Shown here: in pieces, positions 26,629 through 55,820 of the stretch
Position numbering within the stretch: position 1 is the first letter of the stretch
How the letters are laid out: each line of letters starts with the position of its first letter
From: a virus
IMG/VR virus record: IMGVR_UViG_3300007513_000015
Coordinates: 1 to 64,000 of that record
Strand: one strand, 5' to 3'
Length of the DNA: 64,000 bases
The notes under the pieces: model-generated
What the model was told of the DNA's origin: nothing
The model's input: the letters and a program-made list of their open reading frames with translations, nothing else
Databases searched by the model: none
Made by a program: the position numbers and the translations under genes

Positions 26629-28392
26629 ATGGCAGAACAAAGACAATTAAATATTTCAAATCTTGAATTTGATGGAATTAAGAAGAATATCAAAGAATTC
26701 TTGATTAATCAAGATGAATTCGTGGACTATGATTTTGAAGGTTCTGGTATGAGCGTTATGCTTGATGTAATGGCATACACAACTCATTATATGGGTTTCC
26801 ATACTAATATGGCAATCAATGAATCCTTTCTTGATACTGCAACACTACGAAATTCTGTAGTATCTCACGCAAAGACTATTGGATATACTCCTAAATCCGC
26901 TACTGCTGCCGAGGCTATTGTTAAACTTTCATTCAATACTGATGGATATGATCCAAATTATATCATAGTTGAAAGAGGAACACAATTTGTTTCTAGTATT
27001 AATGGTGTTTCTATGCCATTCACAAATGTTGATACCGTGAATATTTTTGAGGATGAAGGAAATGAATTCTCAGGTGAAATCAAACTTCATCAAGGCTCTC
27101 TAAAAGGTCTTGAATGGACATATGATGAAGGACTTTCTGAAATACAAAACTTTATCATTAAGGATCCTACTTGCGATAGAAGTACAATTAAATTAACTGT
27201 TAATGATATTCCTTGGTCCAATGATCAATTTCTTTCTGAAACGAATCCCTCCTCAAATATTTACTTTCTTCAAGAAGGTCTGGATGGAGTAACTGAGATT
27301 TATTTCGGTAATGATATATTCGGAAAAGTGCCATATCATAATTCTGTAATCAGTGTTACATATCTTTCAACAACTGGTGAAGCCGGCAACTATTCATCAA
27401 CAATTAATGAACAAGTGTTTGCACTTGAAACAACCATTGATGGTGTATATGATTCAAGTAAAGTTAGTGTGGAAACTGTTGATATTTCTTCTCTGGGTTC
27501 AAATATCGAATCAACAGAAAATATCAAAATGACTGCGCCGAGGGCGTATGAACGTCAAAATCGTGCTGTAACAGCAGAAGATTATAAAACTATTCTGATT
27601 GAGAAATATCCAAACATCGATTCTATTTCTGTATGGGGTGGCGAAGATAATGATCCTCCGCAATATGGTGCGGTATTCATCTGTATTAAACCTAAACACG
27701 GACTCGAATTATCACCATTAACTAAACAAAAATTGACGAAAGATATTCTTTCAAAGTATAATATGTTGGCAATTAATCCAATAATTACTGCTCCTGAATA
27801 CACATATATTGATGTTGATACCACAGTGAAATATAATCCATTAGAGACATCATTATCTGCTGGTGAAATTCAGAGTAATATTATTAATAGTATTGAACGA
27901 TTCTTCAAAGACGAAATCAGTCAATTCAAAGTCACCTTACGATATTCTAAATTAACCAATACGATTGATAATACGGATTCATCAATTAGTAATAACTTGA
28001 CTGATATTAAGATTTATAAGAAATTCTATATTCAAGCATCCAATACAACTGGTAACTATATATTCAAATATGATAATGCAATTAAACCAGGTACTGCTGT
28101 TTCTTCTGTATTTGGTAATACTGAGGCATCTACTCAATATGCATTACTAGATGATGGTCAAGGAAATATACTTCTTTATGATATTGTTTCTGAGGTATTC
28201 GTGAATACAGAACAGGGAACAGTAGACTATGATACTGGAGTTATTGAGCTAATCGGATTTAGACCTGTACTTGACACAAATTCAGTTATTAGTTTATATG
28301 CTACACCACAATCAAATGATATTTCTGCAATAAGAAGTAACTTGCTTGTACTAAATAATAGTAGTGTTACAATGCAATCAATCGCAGAATAA
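26629..28392 (+). CDS. gp6: baseplate wedge subunit gp6
   Basis: LEFDGIK, DYDFEGSG, NESFLDTATLRNSVVSHAK, QNRAVTAEDY, VWGGE. Confidence 0.95.
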   Translation: MAEQRQLNISNLEFDGIKKNIKEFLINQDEFVDYDFEGSGMSVMLDVMAYTTHYMGFHTNMAINESFLDTATLRNSVVSHAKTIGYTPKSATAAEAIVKLSFNTDGYDPNYIIVERGTQFVSSINGVSMPFTNVDTVNIFEDEGNEFSGEIKLHQGSLKGLEWTYDEGLSEIQNFIIKDPTCDRSTIKLTVNDIPWSNDQFLSETNPSSNIYFLQEGLDGVTEIYFGNDIFGKVPYHNSVISVTYLSTTGEAGNYSSTINEQVFALETTIDGVYDSSKVSVETVDISSLGSNIESTENIKMTAPRAYERQNRAVTAEDYKTILIEKYPNIDSISVWGGEDNDPPQYGAVFICIKPKHGLELSPLTKQKLTKDILSKYNMLAINPIITAPEYTYIDVDTTVKYNPLETSLSAGEIQSNIINSIERFFKDEISQFKVTLRYSKLTNTIDNTDSSISNNLTDIKIYKKFYIQASNTTGNYIFKYDNAIKPGTAVSSVFGNTEASTQYALLDDGQGNILLYDIVSEVFVNTEQGTVDYDTGVIELIGFRPVLDTNSVISLYATPQSNDISAIRSNLLVLNNSSVTMQSIAE

Positions 28393-28412: not shown

Positions 28413-31400
28413 ATGGCCAACGATAATTTTTCCAAAACTCCAGCAAAGTTTCTTTCAATCTTTGTAGAGAGAATGGTTCCTGATTATGTTCGGGAAGATC
28501 ATCCTATGTTCATTACTTTCTTACGGAAGTATTTTGAATATCTGGAAAGGGAAACGGACGTCAATGGTGAACTTGGTGAATATTCTCAGATTACAGATTT
28601 AATTCAGAATGTTGATATTGACCACGCTTTGGATCAATTTATACCAGAGTTCGAGAAACAATATCTAACAACAACTCCACACACTGCAATCGATCCCACT
28701 GTACCTACTACAGATAAGGCATTCCTTGCTAAAAATATTCAAGATGTTTATCGACAAAAAGGTACAACATCTGCACTTAATTTTCTATTCAGAAGAGATT
28801 TTAATACCGATGTAAATGTTATTTATCCGAAACAGTGGTTGATGAAATCGTCTGGTTCAATTTGGTATGAGCCAAAATGGATTACAGTTCTAACAGATAA
28901 AGAGACCACTAATCCTGAATCTGAATACTATAATGAGATTGAAAATGTTCATACTGCTGAAACTGTAAGGACAGTATATAATAAGAAAGTTATTGGTCAA
29001 ATATCTGGGGCTACTGCTTTCATTGATATGGATGAAAGTTCAGCAACTTCTGATTATGAGAAGTTACTTTTAACAGAAGTTTCAGGAGAGTTCATCAAGG
29101 GCGAGCCAATCTGGGAAGATGTTGGTACATCTGGTCAGATACCATACGTTGCTGTTATTATCTCGGAAGGCATCGAAACTGAAGGTGAATGTATAATCAA
29201 CGGTAACTCTTGGGCAGATCGTTGGATGCATATCACAACCCATCCGAATGAAGTTAAGTATATCATATCAGAAGGCGCTGGCGCGATTAAAGGTACTACA
29301 TCAAATGCAACAGCGATTATTGAAGGATTTAATACAGACTGGACACGATTTGACCTAAAAAATATTGATGGTGAGTTTGTTGTTGGTGAGAATATTTTCA
29401 ATACTGCTGGTTCAATATATTGGGAAAATCCAACATCTTCGTTCTGTTCCTCAAGTAATGATTATCCGCTATTCACATTTGATAATGAAATTGATTGTGT
29501 AAATGCACTGCATCCAGAAGGACATATTAATGAATCACCTTTCTTCGGTGAACCAGCATTTCTACACTGGTTCCCATTAGCCGAAGTTACTTCAACTATA
29601 CAAAGCGTAGAAAATAACATTCTCACAGAAGGCACAGCACGGCCAGTTACTCGTGAACAGTGTAATAATCTTCTTGATGGTTCTCATTCAAAAGTTAAAA
29701 CTGCTGTTTGGAAGACAAATGGTTATTGGTTAGATTCTGGCGGATTCTTATCATCTGATAGAAAACTCCAAGATAATAGTTATTATCAGGACTTCTCTTA
29801 TGTAATTAAATCTGATGTTCCTGTACAGACATACCGTGAAGTATTAAAGAAGCTGGTTCATCCAGTTGGTCTAAAACTATTTGCTGAATTCTCATTCCAG
29901 TCTACCGTAGACCTTAAGGTTGAAATGCCATCGAATTATGTTAAATTGATTACATACATCTTCTCATATCTTGATGTTGCTATTGATATTTGGGACCAAG
30001 AGTCAGAACAACACGGTACAGTTGGAAGAGCGCATACTGGATTTGGTGTTTATCTTGAAGATGGATTTGATGAATATGTTGTAGAAATTATGAATATGAT
30101 GGACAATAGATCCGCATTAATTTCTGCTGAATCTTGGGATAATCCAACAGACCATCTATCTGTAAACTTTGAGATTGATGCTGGTAGAATTGGCACTATA
30201 GTTAAAGAGAAACTATATACAATTTCTTGGATGAATGAAGATGTAAGAAACTCAATTCTTGCTTGGCCAGAAACAACTGCTCTTGAATTCACAAAACAAT
30301 TGAAGGTTCTACCTATTGATGAATTCCCGTCTGCAACACAAGAATTGGAAATTGTTGATGATTTGTATAGTTCCACAGATGGTAGAATGATTTCTGCTGA
30401 AATTTGGGAAATGTCTGTATATAAAGCACTTCAAAAACTTGTTGAATGGGTTGATTCATTTATGCCAGAGGCAGACTATGCGCCTGAGAAATCATACAAG
30501 TATTTTGAGGCTAATAGAGAATCAAATAGAATTCACAATATTTATGGCGTAACCAATGATGTAATTGATACTGTTGAGATTCAGGCATTTGAAAGTGAAC
30601 ACGAAATCCATTCTCACGGAGAAAAGAATGGATTTGCTCCTCTTGTGGAGACTGTTATCACAAAAGGACTTGAATTGCCTGAAATGAATGTTGGGGCTTC
30701 GGCATTCCACGTTCACGATTTTAATGGTGAGCAAATCAAGAATCTTATTGTACACGGCAAAGAAGCAACTGCAAGAGGATTATCACACCAAGAAGCAAGA
30801 GATTTGATTAATAGAAACGCATTCGAGATTCCAACATTCTATGGTGCTAATCTCGTTTGTGGTGGAATTATGACACCTCCTCTTTGGGGTGATTGGGTTG
30901 CTTCTGAAACTGATCCACGTTATAATGGTATCGGAGAATGTTTCAATTCACAATACACAAACGAAGCTGATTGTGTGGCGTTCTTTGGTGACCCAATGTT
31001 CTGGATGAATCCAATGTGTTCCGATCAAACATCTCCAGACGAAGCGACTTGTCATACTAATTCACAATCTTGGGGCTATTTCACACTTGAATCATTATCT
31101 CCACTGAAAGGACACGCCTCATATTTTGAACCTGGTGAAGTTGTTGATAGACAAAGAGGGCGTACTGCTGATCCTCTTTCAAGAATACAAGCACGACAAT
31201 TAATTGATGGTGATATCACTTCTGTTACACTATATGACAATATCGGTAAACTTGATAATGGTCATCCTATTGTTGATGAATACGATGTGACTCAAGGTGG
31301 CACAATCACGAATATCCACGGAGAAATTACTTCTGCCCATTATCACGAATATGAAGTGACATATGATGCTGATTGGGAAAACAAAACTGACTGGCAGAAT

Positions 31401-34400
31401 AATCCATTAACTCACGGATTTATATACACTCCTGTAACTACTTGGCTATGTTTCAACTATCAGCCAGACAAGATTGTTGATCCTGATTCTATGGGTGGAA
31501 TGGACTTTATGGGCAATCAATGGCCTCAGAACGTCTTTATGGAAGTTTCGGACGAATATGTTGCTGGTTTCTTAAACAATCCTGATGTTACACTACAACA
31601 CAATCAAGTATGGAGTGAACAGCTAAATCCAAATGTTGATTGGGTAGAAATTTACTCATCTAATCATATTGCTCAAATTGCCGGCACTGGTGATACTGGA
31701 GACCTAGTAAGTGCTACTATGTTGACAGATCAAGTAACTGATATCGCCACTATTGAAGCATATCCAATGGATAGTAATAAAGTTGTTATTTGTGACCAAG
31801 CTGGATTGATTTATCTATTAGACACCATAACTGGCGCAACTGATGGTTTTATGGACTTGACTTCATTGAATCTAACTATTGGTCTCGGCCCGTTCGCAAA
31901 CTATGATGAACGAGGATTGCTTGGTATAGCGTTTCATCCTGACTATGTTAATAATGGTAAGTTATATGTTTACTATATGACAGAACAGGGCGGCACAACT
32001 GGTGCTTGGGGGTATCCTCTTTCATCTACTGTTATATCAGAATTCACTTCTGCTGATCCTGCTACTCATTCTGTAGACATTTCAACAGAAAGAGTCCTAA
32101 TGACTATTCCACAGCCTGATTTCAATCACAATGGTGGTGAACTAGCATTCGGACCAGATGATATGCTGTATATTGGTCTTGGTGATGGTGGTTCTGCTGG
32201 TGACACTTCTCCGCTTACAGGCCACGGTGGACACGGCAACTATGGTAATGCTCAAAATCCTACTAATCTACTTGGATGTATTCTTAGAATCGATCCTACA
32301 GAGGATACAGTAAACAATCTACCGTATACTATTCCTGTGGATAATCCATTTACTGCTTCAATTTACGGCCCAGATTCAGTAGCATATAGGCCTGAAATCT
32401 TCGCATTCGGATTCAGAAATCCTTGGAGATTCTCTTTTGATAACACTGGAAGACTTTGGTGTGCTGATGTTGGTCAAGATAAATTTGAAGAGATTAATAT
32501 TGTAGAATCGGGCGGCAACTACGGTTGGAGAGTAATGGAAGCATATCATTACTATGAAGAACAACAACCAATTATTGACCAAATTGCTATTGATTTAGGA
32601 TATACTACTACAAACGAATACTTGAATGACTTAAAGCAACCTATTCACGAATATTCTCACGGCACTGGTATTTCAGTGTGTGGTGGTTTTGTGTATCGTG
32701 GTACTGCTATGCCTGAACTGGTAGGTAAGTATATCTTTGGTGATTGGTCTACTACGTGGGAAGGTACATCTGGTCATTTATATACATTAGAAGAGAATAA
32801 TGAGGGACTATCTGCTCATTTTATTGTTCTGCCGAATCCAACAAATGGCTCTACCCATAGTCATACACTAACATTAACTGCGGCACACGTTCAATTCTTA
32901 CAAGCAAATCCAGGATCACCTGTTGTGGTGACTCAGACGGATTCTGTTCATTCTGAATTCTATGTTCATACATTTACAATGATATGGAGTACAGCAGATA
33001 ATCAATTCCATCTTGTTGGTCAGACAAATCCTGAAGGACACGACATATTAGAGTTTGATAAGTGGTCAGATGATTTTGCATATATAAGAAAACCTCTTTC
33101 ATTTTGGGATCCTGTGACCGAAGTTGTCACCCTTACCACATATGACGAATCATTATTAACTATCGGCGAAGATACAGATGGAGAATTATACTTCTCCACC
33201 CGTGGTGGTATTGACACTGCTCAAGGAACTGGCCCAAATAATACAAACATTTATAAGTTAACAGAAACTTACAGTTCTGTTGATATTCCTAATGCACCAG
33301 CTCAGATACCAGCTACGGAAGTGGCTCACGTTCACGGATACAAAGTGACGTATGATAATGAGAATATGTTCCAAGTCGAAGAGATTTCAGATATCGAAAT
33401 GCAAGATTGGGATGAATTCTGGCCTATCTGGTCATTAAATGATCCAGCTTCCCATATTCATCCTGTTATCACATCTTGGACTGGTGTTACTGATAAAGAT
33501 ACCATTATTGGTTCCTCTGCTGGATGGTATTATAACGAAGAGAATGATATTTGGGAACCATATGACACTGGTGCAGATACACCTTGGACACCTGAGACTG
33601 ATGATGGACCAACTACATTCTATATTGAAAATGCTCCTATTGTAAACATTCTTGGTGCAAATGAGTATGGAGAAAACACTCACATCCACTATTTTGATAG
33701 TTCACAACTTGACACACTTGGTGCAAATTCAGATAGACTCGCTACACCACTCACACGTATCCAAGCACAAGAATTAGCAAATGGTGTTGTGAATGAAGTA
33801 ATTATTTACTCATCTATCATTAACTCTGGCAATAGATTACATTATCATAAGTATAAGATTCTTTGGAATTTATCCACTCAACAATTCATTGCAAATGAAA
33901 TCGGTGAATTCTGGGATGAATATAACACTGGTGAATACACTATGGTAACAGAGGACACAAGAACTCACGAGCATACATTGACAGTAGATGGATTAACTAC
34001 TCACTTAGGATGGAATGGTACTCCACTTCATTCTGCTCCTGATGTAACTCTTGCAAATGCCCACGATTGGGACAATCTTGAAGGGTCTGAAATTGATCAT
34101 CTTCATTCATTTAATAATACAACACTTGATACAATTGGTGTTAATGCAGGAAGACAATCTCTTCCTATAACAGATGAACAAGCAACTGACTTGATTAATG
34201 GCGATTCAGCAGAAATTATGATATATTCTTCTATCGCAAACGGCGACCATTATCACGGCATTCGTGTAACCTATGATAGTGATTCATTGTCATTCATTGC
34301 CCAGGATGTGGAGAAATGGGAATCTACAGATGGTGCTCAGTTCTTCAACACTACGCCAAGGTCACACGCTCACGCAACAAGTGTTTCTAATGTTATTTCA

Positions 34401-35861
34401 CGACCTGGATTCAATGAATCATTATCAATTCTTCCAACGTTCGGTGCGCCTGGTTATCCGTATCCTGGTGGTTCGCATCCACACTTCTTCAATAATACAG
34501 TTGTTGGACCATTTGCTTGGAATAATGAGATTGAACACGCTGATGGTTTATCAACCACAGAAGCAATGAATCTGATTGATGGTATTGAAGAATCAGTATT
34601 AGTGTATGATTCAATTGAGGGTGCCCACTTCCACGATTATACAATCAAATGGAACGATGTGACAAATAAATTCTATTGTTCAGAATCCACTACTTGGATT
34701 CGTGGTGGTATTGAAGATAATACACAAGACACTTCGAAATATTATACATCTGTTGTAATGAATGAGTCCGAAGGACTTCATTGGCATAACTTGACTGTTG
34801 ACTGGAATCCTAATACCGCTCCAGTTCCTCAACAGACTGGTGGTTCAATCTTTGTAACAAGAACAACAAGCGTTGATGAAGTATTAACTTCTGATCCACA
34901 GATTACAGTACAATCATCATCAACAGAATTAAGTCCTGAAACTACAACATACAATGACACTCCAGAAGCTGGTGATACGACTGTTATCACGACTTATTCT
35001 GATTTGATAACTACTACAACAACAGAAACAGTAACAATCACTACCACTACAACCACTACAACATATTATTCTGATGGAGCAAATCAAGTTGTAGTTGGTG
35101 AACCAGTAATTTCAAATGTTTCTACGCCTACTACAACAACAGAAACAGTAGAAGATTTGACAGAAAGAAAGACATTCGTTAATGGAATTCTTCAGGCGAA
35201 TAACCCGCCTGTTATTTGGATTCAGCCATCATTTATTGATGGAGAAGGTTCACACGACCACTTATTATATGATGGCTGTACACTTGACTCAGAAGGTCAA
35301 TATGCAGGCAGAATCTGTGAACCAATTACACTTTCACAAGCAAATGAATTAATCAATGCTCAGGATATTAATTACGGATTCATTTTCTTCGATTCGCCTA
35401 ATGGGGCTGACGCTCATTATCACGGATATACAATTAAGTTTAATCCTAATATTGGGCCAGATGGTGAGTTTGTTGTAACAGGAATCACTCAGTTTGATAG
35501 AATTCCTGGTACTGGTGAGACTGTACATAAATTCAAGTTGTCTGGTGGTTATCACGATCACGATTATTGGATGAGCGTTTCTGAATACACTTCTCTTCTT
35601 TCTGGAAATCTCGTTATAACTCCTCAGAGAGATATGATTCACGCAACTCAATATACACACGAATTGACAGTTTCACATACGACTGGACAATATAACATTG
35701 TATCACAAACTAGCGACTATGACAATCACAATTTGTTGACATATTTAGGTAGTGTTGCATTAGGTGGAGAATGGACACAAAACTTTGAAGGCGGCGGTGC
35801 AGGCGATCATATACATACTACAATCATTGATGATTCAAATGTGTGGCCTGTCCCAGTATAA
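28413..35861 (+). CDS. gp7: gp7-like baseplate wedge protein with large C-terminal extension (GSDH-like beta-propeller plus HxH repeats)
   Basis: N-terminal VPDYVREDHPMFITFL..YFEYLE, KGT..AL.FLFR and LQDNSYYQDFSYVIKS...VHPVG; between gp6 and gp8. Confidence 0.8.
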   Translation: MANDNFSKTPAKFLSIFVERMVPDYVREDHPMFITFLRKYFEYLERETDVNGELGEYSQITDLIQNVDIDHALDQFIPEFEKQYLTTTPHTAIDPTVPTTDKAFLAKNIQDVYRQKGTTSALNFLFRRDFNTDVNVIYPKQWLMKSSGSIWYEPKWITVLTDKETTNPESEYYNEIENVHTAETVRTVYNKKVIGQISGATAFIDMDESSATSDYEKLLLTEVSGEFIKGEPIWEDVGTSGQIPYVAVIISEGIETEGECIINGNSWADRWMHITTHPNEVKYIISEGAGAIKGTTSNATAIIEGFNTDWTRFDLKNIDGEFVVGENIFNTAGSIYWENPTSSFCSSSNDYPLFTFDNEIDCVNALHPEGHINESPFFGEPAFLHWFPLAEVTSTIQSVENNILTEGTARPVTREQCNNLLDGSHSKVKTAVWKTNGYWLDSGGFLSSDRKLQDNSYYQDFSYVIKSDVPVQTYREVLKKLVHPVGLKLFAEFSFQSTVDLKVEMPSNYVKLITYIFSYLDVAIDIWDQESEQHGTVGRAHTGFGVYLEDGFDEYVVEIMNMMDNRSALISAESWDNPTDHLSVNFEIDAGRIGTIVKEKLYTISWMNEDVRNSILAWPETTALEFTKQLKVLPIDEFPSATQELEIVDDLYSSTDGRMISAEIWEMSVYKALQKLVEWVDSFMPEADYAPEKSYKYFEANRESNRIHNIYGVTNDVIDTVEIQAFESEHEIHSHGEKNGFAPLVETVITKGLELPEMNVGASAFHVHDFNGEQIKNLIVHGKEATARGLSHQEARDLINRNAFEIPTFYGANLVCGGIMTPPLWGDWVASETDPRYNGIGECFNSQYTNEADCVAFFGDPMFWMNPMCSDQTSPDEATCHTNSQSWGYFTLESLSPLKGHASYFEPGEVVDRQRGRTADPLSRIQARQLIDGDITSVTLYDNIGKLDNGHPIVDEYDVTQGGTITNIHGEITSAHYHEYEVTYDADWENKTDWQNNPLTHGFIYTPVTTWLCFNYQPDKIVDPDSMGGMDFMGNQWPQNVFMEVSDEYVAGFLNNPDVTLQHNQVWSEQLNPNVDWVEIYSSNHIAQIAGTGDTGDLVSATMLTDQVTDIATIEAYPMDSNKVVICDQAGLIYLLDTITGATDGFMDLTSLNLTIGLGPFANYDERGLLGIAFHPDYVNNGKLYVYYMTEQGGTTGAWGYPLSSTVISEFTSADPATHSVDISTERVLMTIPQPDFNHNGGELAFGPDDMLYIGLGDGGSAGDTSPLTGHGGHGNYGNAQNPTNLLGCILRIDPTEDTVNNLPYTIPVDNPFTASIYGPDSVAYRPEIFAFGFRNPWRFSFDNTGRLWCADVGQDKFEEINIVESGGNYGWRVMEAYHYYEEQQPIIDQIAIDLGYTTTNEYLNDLKQPIHEYSHGTGISVCGGFVYRGTAMPELVGKYIFGDWSTTWEGTSGHLYTLEENNEGLSAHFIVLPNPTNGSTHSHTLTLTAAHVQFLQANPGSPVVVTQTDSVHSEFYVHTFTMIWSTADNQFHLVGQTNPEGHDILEFDKWSDDFAYIRKPLSFWDPVTEVVTLTTYDESLLTIGEDTDGELYFSTRGGIDTAQGTGPNNTNIYKLTETYSSVDIPNAPAQIPATEVAHVHGYKVTYDNENMFQVEEISDIEMQDWDEFWPIWSLNDPASHIHPVITSWTGVTDKDTIIGSSAGWYYNEENDIWEPYDTGADTPWTPETDDGPTTFYIENAPIVNILGANEYGENTHIHYFDSSQLDTLGANSDRLATPLTRIQAQELANGVVNEVIIYSSIINSGNRLHYHKYKILWNLSTQQFIANEIGEFWDEYNTGEYTMVTEDTRTHEHTLTVDGLTTHLGWNGTPLHSAPDVTLANAHDWDNLEGSEIDHLHSFNNTTLDTIGVNAGRQSLPITDEQATDLINGDSAEIMIYSSIANGDHYHGIRVTYDSDSLSFIAQDVEKWESTDGAQFFNTTPRSHAHATSVSNVISRPGFNESLSILPTFGAPGYPYPGGSHPHFFNNTVVGPFAWNNEIEHADGLSTTEAMNLIDGIEESVLVYDSIEGAHFHDYTIKWNDVTNKFYCSESTTWIRGGIEDNTQDTSKYYTSVVMNESEGLHWHNLTVDWNPNTAPVPQQTGGSIFVTRTTSVDEVLTSDPQITVQSSSTELSPETTTYNDTPEAGDTTVITTYSDLITTTTTETVTITTTTTTTTYYSDGANQVVVGEPVISNVSTPTTTTETVEDLTERKTFVNGILQANNPPVIWIQPSFIDGEGSHDHLLYDGCTLDSEGQYAGRICEPITLSQANELINAQDINYGFIFFDSPNGADAHYHGYTIKFNPNIGPDGEFVVTGITQFDRIPGTGETVHKFKLSGGYHDHDYWMSVSEYTSLLSGNLVITPQRDMIHATQYTHELTVSHTTGQYNIVSQTSDYDNHNLLTYLGSVALGGEWTQNFEGGGAGDHIHTTIIDDSNVWPVPV
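31710..33270 (+). other. glucose/sorbosone dehydrogenase (PQQ-GDH/HHIP-like) beta-propeller domain within gp7
   Basis: ERGLLGIAFHPDY, HNGGELAFGPDDMLYIGLGDGG, LLGCILRIDP, IPVDNPF, EIFAFGFRNPWRFSFD, DVGQDKFEEIN, GGNYGWR, GEDTDGELY. Confidence 0.88.
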
Positions 35862-35943: not shown

Positions 35944-36954
35944 ATGGGTGCAATTGTAACCAGTAAATTTAGAACACAGAACTTGATGGTATTTATTGAC
36001 CAGTTCAAAACTACTGGTTCTGTTGATGATAACTTCCTGTATCTAGGCTTCGGACGTTCACAAGCGTGGGCTGATGATGCTCAAGGAAATGACGAATCTT
36101 CAGGTAACTTCACATTACCTGATCCACTTGATGAAGATGAAGGACAATATTGGGCTGACATTGTTGGCGCAAAGCGTATTCAGAATGATGATATATCACC
36201 TGTACTTCCACGTGTTGACTGGGAAGGCGGTGATACTTTAGCATTCGATGGTGATACTACTAATGGTATTGTAGGTATCGCTGAGCCCGGTCGTTCTTTC
36301 GTTTCAAAGACTGGATATCATTCAGTTATAATGAATTCAGAGTATCGTGTTTATATGTGTACTGGTGAACCTACTGGTGGTAAGTGTTATATTGGTGGTG
36401 TATTTGATGGTGGTACTGCTACTTCACGTACAACTTGTGAGAACACTACTGGTGGATTATGGCTACCTACTGGTGCTTCTGAGGAACCAACTGGATTTAC
36501 AGGTGATGCGGCAGGACTAACTTCACAAGCAATTACTACTGCTGATGGTTATGTGTGGACTTTCCTTTATAAGCTAGAATTGAATGATATTATTAACTCA
36601 ACTACAAATGACTGGATGCCTGTTATTTCTGGTACTGGTGTTCTTTCTGGTTCTGAGCAATCAAACTTTGGTGATGTTGATGCTATCTTTACGGCAAAAT
36701 GTCATCACGGTTTGATTCACGTTCGACTAGAAACTTCTGATGGATTCCCAGAAAATGATGACTTCCGTCAAATTGGTCTGTTACGTAATCCTGAATTGGC
36801 GGGCGGTGGAACAAAGGCACAATCTGCGGTATATGCTGATGCTGTTACATCACTTGAACAAGATTCAGGACAGTTAATTTATCTTGAGAATCGCCGTGCG
36901 ATTACTCGTGCTTCTGATCAGATTGAAGATTTGAAACTTGTAGTTGAATTCTAA
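35944..36954 (+). CDS. gp8: baseplate wedge subunit gp8
   Basis: AIVTSKFR, YLGFGR..AW, YRVYMC, DGYVWTFLY, FRQIGLL.NP, SGQLIYLENR..I.RA.DQ.ED.KLVVEF. Confidence 0.92.
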   Translation: MGAIVTSKFRTQNLMVFIDQFKTTGSVDDNFLYLGFGRSQAWADDAQGNDESSGNFTLPDPLDEDEGQYWADIVGAKRIQNDDISPVLPRVDWEGGDTLAFDGDTTNGIVGIAEPGRSFVSKTGYHSVIMNSEYRVYMCTGEPTGGKCYIGGVFDGGTATSRTTCENTTGGLWLPTGASEEPTGFTGDAAGLTSQAITTADGYVWTFLYKLELNDIINSTTNDWMPVISGTGVLSGSEQSNFGDVDAIFTAKCHHGLIHVRLETSDGFPENDDFRQIGLLRNPELAGGGTKAQSAVYADAVTSLEQDSGQLIYLENRRAITRASDQIEDLKLVVEF

Positions 36955-42889: not shown

Positions 42890-45800
42890 ATGGCACACTA
42901 TACAGGTCACAAATTCACTTTAACTGAATTAAATACAATAGAACAACAGAAGAGTGATTTTCTCAACTCTCTGAATATTAAATTATCTGCTCCTGATCTG
43001 TTAGTTAAGGATCTATCTCTGATGTTGAAGTCTCTGGAAGTAATGGAGAATCTTGAGCATTTACCAGAGTATAAAGACTTTCTGATTAATGTTGCTAATC
43101 GTTCTGCAACATTTGTTAATCCAACAGAAATGATTCCTAATGGTGGTTTTGATGTAACATATAACACAACAAACCTTGTCACCAATTCGTCTTTTTCTGC
43201 TGATGCTTTTGAACTTGAAATAATTAAAAACTCTGGTTTTGATGTTCCTGTTGACCTTGCACGTCCTTGGGCGAATGGTATTGCATATAAGTTTGATACA
43301 TTATTTACAGAAGGCACTCAAATTGTTCAAGCATTCACTGATGGACAACAGACTGCTCTTACTTGGTTCGAGACTGAATTAAAACCCAATACACAGTACA
43401 AGTTTTCTTATGACTTGACTGTAAATCCAGTTAATTGGGATTTACTGAGTGGTGGCTTCAATATGGTTGATATACCATCTTCTGATAAAGCAGTATTCTC
43501 GGAGACTGGCGGCGGCCCTGATCCACAAACATTCATTTGTTCTGTAATTGAAGATGCATCTTTGGTTCGTCCTACTTGTGATGGCGTTGCCATCGAGTGG
43601 AATACTTCTATTGAACAAATGGCTATTGATTGTCAATCTGGCGGCGGCGTTTGGGATGAAGGCGCTATTAATGATCCACAAGCACAAAATCACATACTGA
43701 TTCCTTATCATATTAATGCTCGGGAAGGCGACACAATCATTTTCACTAATCCATCTACATCTATTCTGGTTCACAATGCTGTATCTGATGATAATATTGC
43801 ATTCATTTCACCAGACTTAAATCCAGGAGAATCTTGGTCTTGGGTAGTTGACGGTTATCACGACTTGTATTTCCACTGTACATTCCACCCACTTGAAGAA
43901 GGTCGTTTAACTTCCACAACTAATCATAGATACGTTTATGCTATCGACCACGGTTTGAATCCGGGCGATACAGTTAAGATTCCTATTAATTATGGTGCGA
44001 ATGTTGCATTACCATCATTATCAAATTCTTATGCTATTAACTTAGCATTACCACAATCTTGTACTTCACTTGGTGGTGCGGGCGACCAAAATGTAGTTGA
44101 GTCTCTATATCACGATTTATCAATTGGTAATATTGTTTCCTTCCAGTCTGGTGAAGTTGAAACGAATCCTGATGCTGGTGTTCCTGTTGATGTAGTTTTT
44201 CAAGGCGGCACTGGTTCAGATACTGCTAATGCGTCTGCGAGTGTTCAAGTCACTGGCGGTGTTGTTTCTGATATATCACTAACAAGTGGTGGTTCTGGAT
44301 ATATTGAAATTCCTACAGTTTATATTGTGGGTGGAGGCGGTGCTGGTGCTACTGCATCAATTAATTTCTCTGGCAACATAACATCTATAAGTATTGATGA
44401 TATCGGTTCTGGTTACCAAACTGCTCCTACTGTTCAAATATCTGCTCCAGATGTAGCAACAATTCCTGATGGTATTGGTGGCACAATACCAACAACTCCA
44501 GCAACTGCTATAGCAACAATTAATGCCTCTGGGTCAATAGATTCTATTACCATTACGGAGAATGGTAGTGGTTACCATTCTCCTCCAACTATTACACTTG
44601 TAGGTGGTACACCTACAGTAGCAGGTAGTGTTAGTGGAGAAATTAACGGTTCTGTTCTTGGTATTACACTTATATCAGGTGGCTCAGGTTATGGTTCTGG
44701 TGATGGTTCTGTTGGAGTAGGCGAACGTAAATGGGAAGAATATATTATTACTGCTGTTCAAAAGGGCGATGCTCGTGTAGATATATTCTTTGATGATGTT
44801 AATGTTATCGGACACTTGCATACTGCTGAATTAACTCCTGCTGAATATCAACAGATTAAGAATGGCACACCTACAGTTATTATGACTTCTACTGATGGTG
44901 AAGGTTCTGGAGAGAATTCTCCTCACTCACACTCTGCAACTTTCGATTGGGATCCTGCATTAAATAATGGCGACGGTGGTATGTACCTTGTTGGTATGAC
45001 AGGTTCACACACTCACGGAATGCAGAACTATTATGATATTACTGGCGGCACTAAGGTAGAACTTACTAACTTCGGTCACTATCACGAGATTCTAATTTCT
45101 CTTGATGATGAGGCTACTCTTAAGGCCGCTCCACTACAGAATGTAACACAGGATACTGACGGTACTTGGAGTGCTACTTCAGGCAATACACTGATTCTTA
45201 CTTCTGACTACGGTACTTCTGATCCTCAGCATTTCCATACTCTTGAGATGGGGTGTTTGGATCCAGACAATGATACTTACTTAATCATTGCTATTGACCA
45301 GCATATCCACGATTTCGATAGAGTTTGGTACCCTGGTTCTTCACAGTTTACACTTGGTCAGTATAATTTTGCGTTAGGTGGAGATGATACTAATCCCACA
45401 TCTATTAATCTTCCATTTATTGATATTATTGGATATGTTAAGAAAGATAAAGGTATCGAATGTGATGCTCACGGCTTGAAAGCTGGCGATAAAGTTCATT
45501 ATCAGAATGTTTATAACGGCATTCATCACGGTAATACTAACTACTTTGTTGACTATGTTATCGATTGGGATCACTTTGTATTAACCGAATCTGTTATTTA
45601 TCCGCTTGAAAATGCTCCTGGCACAACTCCAACACAATTCGATGTTGTTGAATCTTATGAAGTTGTTGCGGATTTAGCATCATATAGATTTGAAGTAGAA
45701 AGAGATTTAACAAATCACGTTGGTTCTCCATTTATTGAAGGCGTAGAGATTCATTGGTCACGTCCTAGAACAGTAAAATCAACCAATCACGGACTTTCTG

Positions 45801-48800
45801 TTGGCGATGTTGTTCAGTTACCTTCTGGACCACAACCATATACACCATCTGAATTACCTGGTGCTATGAACGACCATACTGTTGTTGCGCTTGGTGATGG
45901 TTATGGCCCGACTGACAATATGGAAATCACTGTAGATACGCAAACTACATTAACATTTGTTGATCCAGACACCACTACTGTTGAAGGCGCACAAGACTCA
46001 CCTTGGTACTGGACTTGGTGGGATCATTCTGATCCATCATATGCTCCTTATCAAGTAGATGAAGCAGTGGCAGCATCATTTGGTGGTAACGAAGGAACAA
46101 CAGGTGGTTTTGACTTATATCGTGGTGGTACATATAAATTCACTAATAATGCTTGGAATCCATCAGGTCATATCGTACAGCCTGATCCATTCACTGGACT
46201 CCCTACTCCAATGTATATGCACGCGGCTGGTGTTAAAGCTATTCTCGGCGCAGGGTGGGATAATCTAGTTGAAGCGGGTATGGTACAGAATGATGGTAAG
46301 AAGTGTGTTTCTATGAGAGCAGATCACGGTCTAACTATCGTTGCTGGTGATCATAATCCATTCAACAATCTTGAAGAGGAGCCAGGCAACTGGACTTCTA
46401 CAGAAACATTCCCGGTTTGTATGGGGTTAAATGGTTGGTGTGAAGAGTTAGACGTTGATGGATGGTACTACAATGGCGAAGATGATAAACAGACTTGTTT
46501 AGATTTGAATCCAACAAGTGAGGTTGGATTAGCGCAATGGAGAGAATCACAATACATTGGTAACTTCTCTAAAGAATTCACTTGGAAGATTCCTGAAGAT
46601 TTCGGTCTTACTGGTTCTGATGGTAATTCTGGACTTGGTCCATTTGTTGCGCCTGGCGAAGTAAATGGATACTATGCTGTAGAAGCTGATGGTGGTCTAT
46701 ATAAATTTGATAAAGAAGGTATGATTGAAGGTACTAACAGAACAGTCAACCTTTATCGTGGTGGCACTTATCGCTTCCGTGTGAATGCGGCTGGTCACCC
46801 AATGTATATTACAACTGATGATGGTTCACACTTTACTCCAGGTGCTTATTTTGGTGAGTATCTACTTGGTGTAAATGGTTCAAGAGCAGAAGAGGGAGCT
46901 GGTGACCAAACATACGCTGATTCTTCTAACTTTGGTCTTGATGGGGCAGGCGTTCCTAAATATGAAATTTTAGAATTCACTGTACCATCTGTCGCTCCTG
47001 ATACACTTTACTATCAGTGTGCTTGGCACGCTTCTATGATGGGACAATTCAATATTATTGACTTGCCTGTTGTTAATGCTGGTGAAGATATTGTTGTTTA
47101 CTACCATCACGGTCAGGACAATATGTACACTCCTCTACATATTAAGGATAAGATTGTTGTTGATAACGGCACTTCTACTGACTACTTCCAGGTACAGCCT
47201 GAGCCAGTAAATTCATTCCCAGTAAAAGGAACTCAAGCAGACGTACTTAATGAAGGCAATCTGTTAACTGCTACAGGTGAAGGTGCAATTCCAAAGATTC
47301 AAGCAATGAATATTGAACTTGGCACTACATCTTATATTGATCCACTTGTGATGATTCCAGGAATTGGTTCTGAGCAATTCCTTGTAACAAACAATGAAAG
47401 TGGTCTTGCTAAGGTTTATATCAGTGTTGATATAGATAAGCGTTCTAATATCTCTCTTGATAACGTAACATTCAAGGAAGTTGTATGGACAGAATCTGGT
47501 TCTTGGCAGATTCAAGGTGGTACTGCATTTACGAATACTACTGTTGCAGGATATATTGAGCAGATTGTTACTGGTTCAATTGTTGAAGGCACAACATACG
47601 AGATCCAATACGATATCGTAGAATCATTCAAGGATGACTTTGATGCGGAAGTTGGAACAGTTCAAGCAGTTCTTATTGGTGATACTATTGTTGAAGGCAC
47701 ATCTAATACTACAGTTGGACACTACTCCGAAACAGTAATTGCTCCTGCTAATACAAATATATTGAGACTAAATAACACAGGTAAGGGTAAGATTGATAAT
47801 GTTTCAATCCGTGAACGTGTAACTGGTCAAAATGCTTGGTATATGGGTGAAGGCTGGAATTCAGTCGGAGGTAAAGCATATATTGACGGCACTATCTCTT
47901 CTAAAACAGAAGTTAACCAGACTGTTGATATTGAGACTGGTAAACTATATGAAGTTAAGTATAATTTAGCAGACCTCGACCCTAATGATAACGGTATGTC
48001 TGGTAGATTACGTGTTACTCTAGGTACTAATCCTGAGAATTTAATTTCAAATTGGAACTTTGATTTCACTGATCCTGTTCTAGTTAATTGGACAACTTCT
48101 GGTCCTGATGTACAGATTGTTAATGAGAAGTTAATTTTCAATTCTTCTACAAATGGCACTGCTACATACACCTTAGCTAATGCTCTTGTTAAGAATGAGA
48201 AGTATGAAGCAACTATTGATTGTGATGTGTTTGATGAAAATATCTTGAATTTCCAAGTTGGGCCTGGGCCTGCTGGAACTCACGCTCATACATTCCAAAT
48301 GACTGAAACACAGAGTAATTGGTTACAAGAGAATCCATCTGTTAATACGCTATCATTTGTGCAGACTGATGGTTATCACGCAGAAACATATACACACATC
48401 TTTACAATTGCTTGGTCTCAAGATATTATGAGTTATGTGTTAGTTTCACAAACAATTCCTGAAGGTCACGATGAATTAACTCTAGTGTCAACTACTAATA
48501 ACAATCCTACAATTGATGTGTTTGTTGATGGTGTTGCTCAACATACTATTTCTACAACTGGTATCCATCACATTGATTTAGTTGGAGAGGCTTCATCTAC
48601 ATTTATGCTACAGATGAATGGTTCAGGTTCTATCAACTCCGTTAAGCTAGTTGAAGAAGAAATACCAGCAATTGATTATGACTCTACTGGTGTTGTTCCT
48701 AATGGTGAACAATCTTACTATACGAGAGCTGGTTCACACGACTCTAAGATTCACTTCATTGCTGATGTGGACAATAATCGTCCTGAAGAAAATAATCCTT

Positions 48801-50425
48801 ACTACACTAATATTGGTTTTGAAGGATCTATTGATAATATTTCAGTTCGTGAAGTGGAAGAGAATTGGACTTTCGCTTCTCAAGAAGGTGGTAATTCATA
48901 TGTTGACCAAACTTCACAACAGATTTACACTTCTGGTGTTGGTACTGGTGCAAGAGGAATCGCACATATCTCATTTGAAATCACTAATGAAATGAACTAT
49001 CGTGTAGGCTTCAATATTGATAGACCTACTGATTCTATTGTTAAGATTGGTCCTACTCCAGATTCAGACACGTATGGTAGTTTTGAAATCACTGCTAATG
49101 ATAATGATGGAGATAAAGACTTTATATTCACTGCACCAGTTACTGGTGTTGCGTACATAACACTTTCTACTACTGGAAATGGCTTCACTTATTGGGATAA
49201 TGTTTCTGTTAAGACTATTCCTAATCTTTCTTCTGATGAGTATCTATTGCTTGCACGTTCTTTGAATGTGTTTGGTGTACCTATCGGTGGAGAAGAAAGA
49301 TGGAAGAGTGTCCATCTTGATATGGAAAATGCAGACTATACAGGTCAGCCTATCTCTGGTATGCGTACACTGGAATCATTTGGCGAATCAGTGATTGAAA
49401 ATTACTATGATGTTAACAGACGTTCTAATGATATCTTGAATCCACCTGTATCTCTGACCGGTATGAATATTGAGTTTGGTACAAGAGCGGTTACAGCAAT
49501 TAATCCTTCTTGTTCTAATGATCTATATAATAATCAAGTAGATTGTGAGACACCTAACGGTACTTGGTTCGATACAGTAGTATCCTTCTGTTCTGATTCA
49601 ATCTATCCAGATGAAGTGTCTTGTATTGAGCCTAATGGTACTTGGACTGCTGGTTCTTGTTCTAATCCAATATATGGAGATGTTTCATCTTGTGAAGATG
49701 CGGGAACGTGTTCTGATTCACAGTTTAACAACAGTGAAACACAGTGTACTACTTCTGGTGGAGTTTGGACTTCTGATAATAATACTTGGACATTTGGTGT
49801 TTGTACTGACTTATCTTTCAATGACCAATCTTCTTGTGAATCACCAAGAGGAGTTTGGACACCTGAGAATCCAGCTCATTGTACTGACTTATCTTTCAAT
49901 GACCAATCTTCTTGTGAATCACCAAGAGGAGTTTGGGATGCTACTGTAGTTGAGGCAATGACTGGAGACACAATCGAAGTAACTGGTGCTGGTATTGATC
50001 CAAACTATATTATCACTATTGGTGGGGTTGAACAATCATCTTCACCAATAAATCTACCAACTAAGGTTAACTTTATATTAAATGCTGATACTCCACTAGG
50101 AATACAAGAATTTAAGATTACAAATATTGACGGTGATTTTGCTATACTTGATGTGCCATTCACTGTACTTGATCACTTGAGAATCATTACTGTTACTGAT
50201 AATCTTGATGGCACTTATGGAGTTACAGGAGCATCATTTGAATCTACTACAACAGTAACACTTATTGACCAAGCAACTACAACTGATTATCCTCAAACGG
50301 TAACATTTGTTGATGCTAACAATATTTCATTTACTGATGTTGTAAATCCTGGTACATATGATGTGAGAGTTGATAATTCTGATGGATCAACATTCACTGA
50401 AATTGATGCAGTAGTTATAGCATAA
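42890..50425 (+). CDS. giant putative fibre/structural protein with cupredoxin domains, HxH repeats, carbohydrate-binding-like and Cys repeats
   Basis: 2511 aa; HNAV...YFHCTFHP, GHPMY...YYQCAWHASM, GSGY repeats, triple-HxH modules, C-terminal CSD..CE..G.W repeats. Confidence 0.8.
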   Translation: MAHYTGHKFTLTELNTIEQQKSDFLNSLNIKLSAPDLLVKDLSLMLKSLEVMENLEHLPEYKDFLINVANRSATFVNPTEMIPNGGFDVTYNTTNLVTNSSFSADAFELEIIKNSGFDVPVDLARPWANGIAYKFDTLFTEGTQIVQAFTDGQQTALTWFETELKPNTQYKFSYDLTVNPVNWDLLSGGFNMVDIPSSDKAVFSETGGGPDPQTFICSVIEDASLVRPTCDGVAIEWNTSIEQMAIDCQSGGGVWDEGAINDPQAQNHILIPYHINAREGDTIIFTNPSTSILVHNAVSDDNIAFISPDLNPGESWSWVVDGYHDLYFHCTFHPLEEGRLTSTTNHRYVYAIDHGLNPGDTVKIPINYGANVALPSLSNSYAINLALPQSCTSLGGAGDQNVVESLYHDLSIGNIVSFQSGEVETNPDAGVPVDVVFQGGTGSDTANASASVQVTGGVVSDISLTSGGSGYIEIPTVYIVGGGGAGATASINFSGNITSISIDDIGSGYQTAPTVQISAPDVATIPDGIGGTIPTTPATAIATINASGSIDSITITENGSGYHSPPTITLVGGTPTVAGSVSGEINGSVLGITLISGGSGYGSGDGSVGVGERKWEEYIITAVQKGDARVDIFFDDVNVIGHLHTAELTPAEYQQIKNGTPTVIMTSTDGEGSGENSPHSHSATFDWDPALNNGDGGMYLVGMTGSHTHGMQNYYDITGGTKVELTNFGHYHEILISLDDEATLKAAPLQNVTQDTDGTWSATSGNTLILTSDYGTSDPQHFHTLEMGCLDPDNDTYLIIAIDQHIHDFDRVWYPGSSQFTLGQYNFALGGDDTNPTSINLPFIDIIGYVKKDKGIECDAHGLKAGDKVHYQNVYNGIHHGNTNYFVDYVIDWDHFVLTESVIYPLENAPGTTPTQFDVVESYEVVADLASYRFEVERDLTNHVGSPFIEGVEIHWSRPRTVKSTNHGLSVGDVVQLPSGPQPYTPSELPGAMNDHTVVALGDGYGPTDNMEITVDTQTTLTFVDPDTTTVEGAQDSPWYWTWWDHSDPSYAPYQVDEAVAASFGGNEGTTGGFDLYRGGTYKFTNNAWNPSGHIVQPDPFTGLPTPMYMHAAGVKAILGAGWDNLVEAGMVQNDGKKCVSMRADHGLTIVAGDHNPFNNLEEEPGNWTSTETFPVCMGLNGWCEELDVDGWYYNGEDDKQTCLDLNPTSEVGLAQWRESQYIGNFSKEFTWKIPEDFGLTGSDGNSGLGPFVAPGEVNGYYAVEADGGLYKFDKEGMIEGTNRTVNLYRGGTYRFRVNAAGHPMYITTDDGSHFTPGAYFGEYLLGVNGSRAEEGAGDQTYADSSNFGLDGAGVPKYEILEFTVPSVAPDTLYYQCAWHASMMGQFNIIDLPVVNAGEDIVVYYHHGQDNMYTPLHIKDKIVVDNGTSTDYFQVQPEPVNSFPVKGTQADVLNEGNLLTATGEGAIPKIQAMNIELGTTSYIDPLVMIPGIGSEQFLVTNNESGLAKVYISVDIDKRSNISLDNVTFKEVVWTESGSWQIQGGTAFTNTTVAGYIEQIVTGSIVEGTTYEIQYDIVESFKDDFDAEVGTVQAVLIGDTIVEGTSNTTVGHYSETVIAPANTNILRLNNTGKGKIDNVSIRERVTGQNAWYMGEGWNSVGGKAYIDGTISSKTEVNQTVDIETGKLYEVKYNLADLDPNDNGMSGRLRVTLGTNPENLISNWNFDFTDPVLVNWTTSGPDVQIVNEKLIFNSSTNGTATYTLANALVKNEKYEATIDCDVFDENILNFQVGPGPAGTHAHTFQMTETQSNWLQENPSVNTLSFVQTDGYHAETYTHIFTIAWSQDIMSYVLVSQTIPEGHDELTLVSTTNNNPTIDVFVDGVAQHTISTTGIHHIDLVGEASSTFMLQMNGSGSINSVKLVEEEIPAIDYDSTGVVPNGEQSYYTRAGSHDSKIHFIADVDNNRPEENNPYYTNIGFEGSIDNISVREVEENWTFASQEGGNSYVDQTSQQIYTSGVGTGARGIAHISFEITNEMNYRVGFNIDRPTDSIVKIGPTPDSDTYGSFEITANDNDGDKDFIFTAPVTGVAYITLSTTGNGFTYWDNVSVKTIPNLSSDEYLLLARSLNVFGVPIGGEERWKSVHLDMENADYTGQPISGMRTLESFGESVIENYYDVNRRSNDILNPPVSLTGMNIEFGTRAVTAINPSCSNDLYNNQVDCETPNGTWFDTVVSFCSDSIYPDEVSCIEPNGTWTAGSCSNPIYGDVSSCEDAGTCSDSQFNNSETQCTTSGGVWTSDNNTWTFGVCTDLSFNDQSSCESPRGVWTPENPAHCTDLSFNDQSSCESPRGVWDATVVEAMTGDTIEVTGAGIDPNYIITIGGVEQSSSPINLPTKVNFILNADTPLGIQEFKITNIDGDFAILDVPFTVLDHLRIITVTDNLDGTYGVTGASFESTTTVTLIDQATTTDYPQTVTFVDANNISFTDVVNPGTYDVRVDNSDGSTFTEIDAVVIA
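49801..49936 (+). repeat. exact 58-bp direct repeat, period 78 bp
   Basis: 49801-49858 identical to 49879-49936 (CTDLSFNDQSSCESPRGVW twice). Confidence 0.9.
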
Positions 50426-53500: not shown

Positions 53501-54095
53501 TATATCTGATCCTTCAGGTAAGATTGGTACTACTTTAGATAGCACAATTGGCGGTGGATTCGCTGGAACAGTCACACTTAATAATGGTATCGGCTCGGCT
53601 ACAATCGTTGAAGATTGGCAAAATTATATTGATGGACAAACAAGAGTTATAGTAGTTGATGCAGATCCTATTCCTACTGGTTACGGTGCTACTGGCACAG
53701 TTCAACTTGGAGCGGCAGGCAATGTTTCATCTATCACATTCACTAATCCTGGAACTGCTTATAAGCAACCTGTAGTGGTGGTTGCAGGACCAGTTAGTTA
53801 TACTGGTGCTTCTATCAATAATGTTAATACTGATTTAGCACTGTATGGGCCAGAAGGAAATACAGATAATAGCCCATTTTCTGCTAATAACACAGCCGGA
53901 ACAAACTTTAAGAATGGTATTATGATTCAGTTTGAGAATCCAAATGGTCATTCTATGGATGATTATTGGACATTCAAATGCCAGTCTTGGAAAAAAGGAA
54001 CGCCAGATTCACTACTATACACTTCTAGTAGATATGATGGTAATAATGAAAATATGCGTGGAATTATTACATTGAAAGATGTATGGGACGTTTAA
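50505..54095 (+). CDS. large putative fibre/structural protein with G-x-G-Y repeats, a triple-HxH module and a degenerate cupredoxin
   Basis: Repeated ITNxGxGY; GHTH/GHSH/GHDH; FTPSVISVNVGDTIDFTNLD..AHTVT. Confidence 0.8.
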   Translation: MSVTLSNITTAVDPFNDIPDITFDSIDITAFTEEVEIYTNTPAVMIPTKLNAMAGSMKTWLNDNISAPLENQQNTFKNEVIIRTNTAMNAVETYMNDEVQGFVNTVFVPWANDAGNILSNHANILETNVTGTISQLQSDYTLHVESQDAIIQQALDDILSNIAQYTSGAADSGYSIHQTNELLADVTMTREIGFDNYKYNAEGQITFAEEGPNRTHHISYNKSTGAIQAFGESMQIEGEPRPFVQHLKLEQEASTGSTSVTKIKAYDINKYVSTTNVNSFRGTGHEEDGTPAVELTILNNTSIADTDNPELVLRRGIDSAMMWGSLDDGDFITITNLDGSIYNEGIVGQYAQNYDTTLFKPYSSYCHDSTSSVTGWGVDASMNAIDIDSSGGLYDTPVKCEMYKDSNVALLDDLSRSYEFNIAGESYDSDLSDGLIYNVYINDDSGFIDSYAYTIDANGKQDTGAILNAVYDNGVSDVTITNRGTKYSKNSSARAFDLGAVDVTGSIETKAVATHTLKNGMVDEILITNAGAGYTGYYEIIVPEVPGGDGHTHTLQFSQAIINQIKAGTPQVGATVEAGHSHDITVAWNDFNNSFILTQTVGGGHDHEMTITTHNVNPTITVAFTTNTGGLADGYVVLAEDGTVDEVIITNGGADYGVGDTVSISGGAPATPAQVSMNLADGGIASIAVSDQGTGYTDNTAKTVQVDIQNNTFTPSVISVNVGDTIDFTNLDIQAHTVTHTDGMFNSGDIPQNATFSYTVTKDTELTDRYDIVDENNTETTATLWVRENTVFVEMNTTTGGGLRGLGTINASGNLIDIAVDNPGKGYNATDTVRIIDVSGPGEGAYASVETNRSIGAVTVVNKGTGYSENTQILAFDPTGTPIIDSATGLETGRTYGSGAILRPNLTTEYVPAVCSDSQFLVQADCEGAGATWSAEITIGEIIDVTVADGGSNYNDIQLIINDPAGTGAGGSLTPDVNNIISDVSLTNRGSNYNEPIIIISDPSGKIGTTLDSTIGGGFAGTVTLNNGIGSATIVEDWQNYIDGQTRVIVVDADPIPTGYGATGTVQLGAAGNVSSITFTNPGTAYKQPVVVVAGPVSYTGASINNVNTDLALYGPEGNTDNSPFSANNTAGTNFKNGIMIQFENPNGHSMDDYWTFKCQSWKKGTPDSLLYTSSRYDGNNENMRGIITLKDVWDV

Positions 54096-55109: not shown

Positions 55110-55125
55110 TTTAGGAGTTATAAAA

Positions 55126-55818: not shown

Positions 55819-55820
55819 AA

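Follow-up and report, generated by a model that had tools for sequence, protein, structure and literature searches.

A repeated module with three His-x-His pairs in a giant gp7-type baseplate protein of an uncultured T4-like phage: a candidate single-chain metal site

Introduction

Metal sites built from His-x-His (HxH) pairs have, to our knowledge, been known in phage tails solely as sites shared by three chains. Here, we describe a module with three HxH pairs that recurs along a giant baseplate wedge protein, a homolog of T4 gp7, encoded in a 64,000-nucleotide stretch of viral DNA (positions 1 to 64,000 of IMG/VR virus record IMGVR_UViG_3300007513_000015; the window), and that is also found in two other tail proteins of the same phage. 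A predicted six-histidine (His6) site within one chain is the best-supported reading of the HxH triad, and on balance we lean toward the view that the module is a self-contained, metal-stapled structural domain whose predicted site is built by a single chain. This reading is the best one because three lines of evidence favor it, namely the single-copy context of gp7, a compact monomer model and the pattern of the histidines.

The phage is an uncultured T4-like myovirus whose gp6 shares no more than 36% identity with its counterpart in any deposited phage. Its source record is a 99-kilobase (kb) IMG/VR contig that is estimated to be 54% complete.

The HxH module and its three forms

The carrier protein of 2482 amino acids (aa) contains exactly 19 HxH motifs, which bears out the approximate count of the original prediction, and its His content is 3.5%. 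When its sequence was shuffled with composition held constant (n=2000), 3.0 ± 1.7 HxH motifs were obtained, with a maximum of 11. The HxH motifs are maintained by selection and do not reflect chance. The interval in which the repeat had been noticed (aa 1755-2471) holds 13 of the 19 motifs, and the four consecutive copies with three HxH each that had been described there are located by both a hidden Markov model (HMM) and an alignment. The consensus, HxH-F..P(L/I)(S/T)xxQAxxLIxG..Y(S/D)S..H(Y/F)HxYxIx(W/Y)..HxH, fits as well. The HMM, which had been suggested as a check and was built from the four named copies, recovers all four at 143-156 bits along with several partial copies. The four long copies (about 110 aa each) are 20-34% identical in pairwise comparisons, all six of their histidines align, and their first and third HxH lie 92-104 aa apart. 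One assignment had to be changed: the DHIH at aa 2466 had been taken as the third HxH of the fourth copy, but the alignment places HDH 2381-2383 in that position and leaves HIH 2466 as an orphan.

The modules of the window fall into three forms: the long form, a minimal form of about 65 aa, and a five-His variant. The minimal form follows the pattern HxH-xxLTxxEAxxLxxG-strand-HxH-x-T-I-T-W-D-strand-HxH, while the five-His variant reads HxH..H-x5-H..H. A hydrophobic strand and then a Gly/Ser-rich loop of 4-6 residues lead into each HxH, an arrangement that occurs three times per module. Complete, partial and orphan occurrences are as follows (window coordinates, strand, description).

33660..33998, + strand, long copy A, gp7 aa 1750-1862, with HIH 1757, HYH 1810 and HEH 1852; HMM score 156 bits
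34077..34397, + strand, long copy B, gp7 aa 1889-1995, with HLH 1896, HYH 1946 and HAH 1985
34455..34811, + strand, long copy C, gp7 aa 2015-2133, with HPH 2022, HFH 2072 and HWH 2123
35232..35588, + strand, long copy D, gp7 aa 2274-2392, with HDH 2281, HYH 2335 and HDH 2381
32838..33056, + strand, five-His variant, gp7 aa 1476-1548, with HSH 1482, H1513, H1519 and H1543; aligned with the minimal modules
35535..35747, + strand, five-His variant, gp7 aa 2375-2445, with HDH 2381, H2410, H2416 and H2439
33318..33479, + strand, half module, gp7 aa 1636-1689, with HVH 1639 and HIH 1681; covers HMM positions 55-111 only; His invariant
30702..31445, + strand, split or degenerate copy, gp7 aa 764-1011, with HVH 766, helix motifs, HYH 976 and H1001; interrupted by a Cys-containing insert
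35808..35816, + strand, orphan C-terminal HIH, gp7 aa 2466-2468
44795..45319, + strand, two minimal triad modules (about 65-85 aa), aa 636-810 of a 2511-aa tail protein (open reading frame, ORF, 42890..50425)
48263..48469, + strand, third five-His variant, aa ~1792-1860 of the 2511-aa tail protein (His ~1798-1850)
52137..52340, + strand, one minimal triad module, aa 545-612 of a 1196-aa tail protein (ORF 50505..54095), with HTH 551, HSH 580 and HDH 605

The split copy is picked up as three partial HMM matches (aa 764-806, 913-951 and 971-1011), and its histidines are invariant. The five-His variant is informative in another way. In three independent copies in the window, the second motif has changed from HxH to Hx5H and the third from HxH to a single His, and the two changes always occur jointly. 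Because motifs 2 and 3 are altered together, this variant suggests that they are functionally coupled.

Two Cys-containing stretches of gp7 deserve mention beside these copies. They lie at aa ~340-430 (window ~29430-29700) and aa ~810-900 (window ~30840-31110), both have the short motif N-E-I/A-D-C-V, and they adjoin helix motifs of the module type (P-V-T-R-E-Q-C-N-N-L-L-D-G and P-L-S-R-I-Q-A-R-Q-L-I-D-G). These stretches could represent additional copies of the module that are degenerate or interrupted.

Conservation of the histidines

A pattern scan of IMG/VR yielded 24 related loci, from which 63 distinct module copies were collected. The complete region is present in 22 of these loci, all with the same four-copy architecture; each of the two remaining loci is a fragment that includes a single full copy. 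Across the 63 copies, the only invariant columns are H10, H12, L41 (in the helix), H63, H65, H105 and H107; S54 and F78 reach at least 90%. There is no conserved Asp, Glu or Cys. Because no acidic residue or Cys is invariant among these copies, the histidines are the only candidate ligands.

The same constraint holds for the protein as a whole. Among 14 distinct full-length gp7 orthologs, with a mean column identity to the 2482-aa protein of 65%, every HxH histidine is invariant except H735 (93%), and so are all five histidines of both five-His modules in gp7. In the 2511-aa tail protein, all 12 histidines of the minimal pair are invariant among 23 distinct orthologs. Three HxH per module is the rule throughout, in several unrelated architectures; only the five-His variant and a pair of degenerate modules in one protein (P0017) depart from it.

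The carrier is a gp7 homolog

Gene order and the PHROG assignments of the flanking genes place the 2482-aa ORF in a baseplate module of the T4 type, which runs gp5-type hub-lysozyme, gp25, gp6, 2482-aa ORF, gp8. The three central genes are as follows.

26629..28392, gp6-like gene (PHROG), directly before the 2482-aa ORF at the gp7 position
28413..35861, + strand, giant gp7-position baseplate wedge protein, 2482 aa, a single ORF between the gp6-like and gp8-like genes
35944..36954, gp8-like gene (PHROG), directly after the 2482-aa ORF at the gp7 position

The N-terminal part of the 2482-aa protein matches PF23786 and phrog_17744 ("baseplate wedge subunit"), and its PHROG matches are restricted to this part. 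In tblastn searches, the N-terminal part also matches baseplate wedge genes in many T4-like phages. A pairwise BLASTP comparison with T4 gp7 itself aligns aa 14-136 with T4 gp7 aa 645-758 (E value 2e-4, a weak match), and a second segment, collinear with the first, aligns aa 465-491 with T4 gp7 aa 866-892 (E 0.006), which links the protein to domain V of T4 gp7. The Gp7_helical domain of Pfam corresponds to T4 gp7 aa 643-689. Given the gp25-gp6-X-gp8 synteny and the collinear alignment with the helical domain of T4 gp7, the 2482-aa protein is, by sequence and gene order, a gp7 homolog; the BLASTP similarity is weak but consistent with PF23786 and phrog_17744.

The two proteins thus share their position between gp6 and gp8 and a collinear similarity in the helical core-bundle domain and the region after it. 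They differ in what surrounds this core. T4 gp7 has extra domains N-terminal to its helical domain, whereas in the homolog described here the helical region is N-terminal and is followed by some 2000 added aa, which include the Cys-containing insert, a propeller, the His modules and a Thr-rich spacer. In cyanophage S-PM2, the same gene order is found with a giant ORF at the gp7 position, and the S-PM2 protein contains 0 HxH motifs and 0.46% His.

Solved myophage baseplates have a heterotrimeric wedge in which a single peripheral subunit is combined with two gp6-type chains (PMC10966104). Because the gp7 homolog is related to the peripheral subunit of such wedges, it would be expected, by homology, as one chain per wedge, with six copies in each particle, rather than as a homotrimer.

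The propeller within gp7 is a domain of the glucose/sorbosone-dehydrogenase type (PF07995, E 1e-33, aa 1164-1443, window 31902-32741). A five-His module directly follows the best PF07995 match and more propeller-like sequence seems to come after it, so that this module may be an insertion in the propeller. Several propeller histidines, for example H1239, H1274, H1379, H1412, H1416 and H1455, are invariant among the orthologs. The Thr-rich spacer lies between copies C and D (aa 2134-2273, window 34812-35231); its 141 aa include 39 Thr, in runs such as TTTTTTTT, and it is probably a flexible or extended linker.

Structural model and comparison with known folds

An AlphaFold2 monomer model of copy A, built with the 63-copy alignment, is compact and confident, with a predicted local distance difference test (pLDDT) score of 84.9 and a predicted template-modelling (pTM) score of 0.77. 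It contains a helix (residues 35-42), a short strand (49-52) and a hairpin (62-72/77-87) that is opened by H63 and H65. Averaged over 10-residue blocks, the pLDDT is 88-94 for residues 11-100, including HxH-1 and the long loops, and 77 for residues 101-110, which carry HxH-3.

The minimal form behaves differently in modeling. A monomer model of two minimal modules has a pLDDT of 58, and only the order of its secondary-structure elements was used: in both modules HxH-1 is followed by a helix, a strand, HxH-2 with a strand, a further strand, and HxH-3. In this order HxH-1 immediately precedes the helix, HxH-2 opens the hairpin and HxH-3 directly follows it; by simple topology, the three pairs of the minimal form would come to lie at the same pole of the domain. 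Because its monomer model is poor, the minimal form may need partners.

Does the module correspond to any known fold? A Pfam search of the module with E values up to 10 returned chance-level rows only, and comparison with the sequences of the PDB, by phmmer and with a profile, gave nothing but a His-tag artefact. The copy A model fares no better: the best E value of Foldseek against the PDB is 0.14, VIA-align against 48,161 chains gives a best Z of 4.0 (the usual noise level being 7-8), and BFVD contains no match at E <=0.001 (best E 0.097). The domain is undescribed in the libraries and literature searched, and the lack of a clear match to a predicted model would not by itself prove that the fold is new.

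A proposed single-chain, metal-stapled domain

How might the three pairs of one chain be used? In the reading that we favor, each module would be a small self-contained alpha/beta domain with the order HxH-1, short helix, strand, HxH-2 opening a beta-hairpin, and HxH-3, and the three pairs of a single chain would converge on a shared metal site, made up of either six imidazoles (His6) or a pair of His3 half-sites. As the protein folds in the host cytoplasm, it would acquire the ion, which would then hold together, as a structural staple, a domain whose loops are long and whose hydrophobic core is small. Such a staple would replace a disulfide, which would be unsuited to a virion protein that folds in the cytoplasm. 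We infer the convergence of the six histidines, the binding and identity of a metal, and the structural role. The invariant sites, which appear to be of a buried type, suggest a structural staple rather than exchangeable storage.

Along the C-terminal arm of gp7, four long and two five-His modules are strung together with the sugar-dehydrogenase-type propeller and the Thr-rich spacer. The arm would be present once per wedge, presumably projecting from the periphery of the baseplate, and the modules would act as rigid beads in its distal part and as connectors in fibers.

Six-histidine sites are not without precedent. Calprotectin (S100A8/A9) has a natural octahedral site of six histidines, including an HxH pair, that binds Mn(II), Fe(II) and Ni(II) tightly. 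The site lies at a heterodimer interface of EF-hand proteins and serves metal withholding, and calprotectin has no relation in sequence or fold to the module described here.

Several observations weigh against a self-contained site. The poor monomer model of the minimal modules is one. In addition, the minimal form sits in tail-fiber-like proteins with an Mtd_N N-terminus, which are usually trimers, and sites on the fiber axis like those of T4 gp37 would be possible there. Within gp7, HxH 2381-2383 seems to be common to copy D, as its third pair, and to the next five-His module, as its first, and such sharing fits poorly with one site per module. Finally, the stoichiometry of gp7 is drawn from homology rather than from observation on this phage.

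A broader proposal, which we put forward tentatively and consider somewhat doubtful as a whole, is that the module would represent an undescribed fold with a complete six-His metal cage in one chain of about 65-110 residues. Uncultured phages, this T4-like clade included, would insert it as a portable "metal-stapled bead" into baseplate and fiber proteins. With some 50-100 ions per particle, it would make up a real pool of protein-bound trace metal.

If the favored reading is true, a one-chain HxH site would constitute a new small metal-binding fold, useful as a compact stabilizing domain that can fold in the cytoplasm. It would also widen the discussion of trace metal bound to marine phages from fiber tips to the baseplates of an uncultured clade that is represented by dozens of IMG/VR contigs. 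The signature HxH-helix-strand-HxH-hairpin-HxH could, in that case, aid the annotation of giant phage tail proteins that otherwise lack annotation.

Alternative explanations

The obvious point of comparison is the tip of the T4 long tail fiber (gp37; PDB 2XGF), which holds seven Fe ions per fiber (PMC11705849). The sites of gp37, like those of gp12 and of the P2 and T4 spike tips, belong to tail proteins and have conserved His-x-His pairs at the starts of short beta-strands (PMC11705849, 10.1101/2023.02.25.529910). In gp37, six imidazoles surround one ion, an arrangement that would by analogy also be expected in the module. The differences are that the six histidines of gp37 come from three chains and lie on the fiber axis, whereas the module has its three HxH in a single alpha/beta unit of about 65-110 aa, on a gp7 carrier that is expected to be single-chain.

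Could the pairs nonetheless form intermolecular or inter-module sites as in the gp37 needle, with three stacked sites on a three-fold axis per module? Part of the evidence points in this direction. The minimal module occurs in proteins that combine an Mtd_N tail-fiber N-terminus with fiber-type repeats and would normally be trimers; in tandem minimal modules the HxH pairs are spaced almost evenly (24-35 aa), like the rungs of a ladder; their monomer model is poor; and HxH-T-x-T-V in the module locally resembles SHGHTITV in gp37. Against this, the carrier discussed above is a gp7 homolog, expected once per wedge. The number of HxH is fixed at three per module, but in T4 gp37 the spacing is irregular (9-141 aa) and has no triad period. 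Homology to the gp37 tip is lacking: in hhalign, the 63-copy profile aligned with gp37 aa 811-1026 at a probability of 0.5%, over 13 columns around one HxH. The module moreover has a helix and a hairpin and is modeled as a compact monomer, and the Hx5H of the five-His variant cannot put both of its histidines on one axis. Axial sites of this kind are thus possible for the minimal form in fiber proteins and a poor fit to gp7, and as a general account of the module we judge them unlikely.

A second alternative holds that the histidines form a functional cluster. At the host surface they could, in the manner of the "Ferrojan Horse" idea, present or exchange metal or bind a ligand (a siderophore-receptor surface, haem or an anionic glycan); alternatively, they could sense pH or redox state and so help to trigger the baseplate. 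The modules do sit on host-facing tail proteins, gp7 also has a propeller of the sugar-dehydrogenase type, and the use of HxH-bound tail iron for host recognition is a published hypothesis (10.1101/674382; PMC11705849). However, six invariant histidines amid variable residues fit a closed coordination sphere better than an open surface, and the reuse of the module as a cassette between a shaft and very different distal domains is what would be expected of a structural connector. We regard a functional cluster as improbable, to about the same degree as axial sites.

The original prediction combined the single-chain His6 site, which stands as the best-supported (predicted) reading, with a high-capacity metal sponge, which is not supported. 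One ion per module would indeed give 6-8 sites per gp7 chain and an inferred 36-48 per baseplate, to which two other tail proteins would add four modules, but this is of the same order as the 42 Fe calculated for the T4 long tail fibers (seven per gp37 fiber in each of six fibers; PMC11705849), one ion per ~100 residues is poor storage, and absence of the module from the S-PM2 gp7-position protein points to a lineage-specific trait rather than a general need, so that a virion storing or sequestering many ions seems very improbable.

Distribution beyond the window

A profile of the four long copies, run against 1.84 billion representative proteins, produced 16 matches. Four of the matches in the profile search (P0005 and P0009-P0011) were rejected as relatives, being Kelch or immunoglobulin-type repeat proteins or low-His repeat proteins without HxH. 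True relatives include 7 unrelated small proteins that each have two minimal modules; their 12 histidines are all invariant. Four metagenomic proteins of 771-908 aa (P0023-P0026) have one triad each, placed between the shaft and the distal domain, in a setting of an Mtd_N tail-fiber N-terminus and fiber-type repeats. Eleven more fiber-like proteins have exactly one triad each, with HxH spacings of 32-35 and 25-27 aa.

The four metagenomic proteins appear to be mosaic tail fibers. Their Mtd_N N-terminus and repeats resemble minor tail proteins of Arthrobacter and Gordonia phages, while their distal domain resembles hypothetical proteins of Rhodobacter, Curvibacter and Pseudanabaena phages. The triad module thus has the look of an exchangeable cassette between the N-terminal part and the distal domain.

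Among the 33 family members retrieved, the N-termini inspected carry neither a signal peptide nor a lipobox.

Further searches did not extend this distribution. Neither megablast nor a tblastn search with the module regions, the latter against 50,697 phage records, gave a match, the small triad proteins (P0012, P0015-P0037) were not found in scans of viral, genome and metagenome contig collections, and the ESM Atlas returned no usable match.

The phage and neighboring genes

An assignment to the cyanophages was considered and is unsupported: the 99-kb contig contains no psbA, and the 64-kb window contains no transfer RNA gene.

Several other features of the window were noted along the way. In the 1196-aa tail protein, aa 698-779 (window 52596-52841) give a sub-threshold, cupredoxin-like match to PF13473 (22.5 bits, as compared with a cut-off of 27). 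The match lies downstream of the triad module, at a distance of 90 aa, and since aa 681-800 around it are without Cys, it is unlikely to form a type-1 copper site. The gene after gp8 (window 37048-42456) encodes a protein of 1802 aa with DUF4815 (PF16075, E 3e-63), a phrog_358 match over most of its length, and one HxH.

Further downstream, window 54147-56792 contains two paralogous phrog_4205 genes of unknown function, which lie around a gene with a weak "tail fiber assembly" match (phrog_4912). Just past the tail genes, adjacent paralogous genes at 58757-60493 and 60503-62275 encode Nol-like carbamoyltransferases (phrog_1601, E 1e-161 and 3e-169). At the other end of the window, a short ORF (264-779, + strand) has H-x-H-x-H-x-H, that is, three overlapping HxH, at aa 127-133 of its stop-to-stop frame, a motif unrelated to the module.

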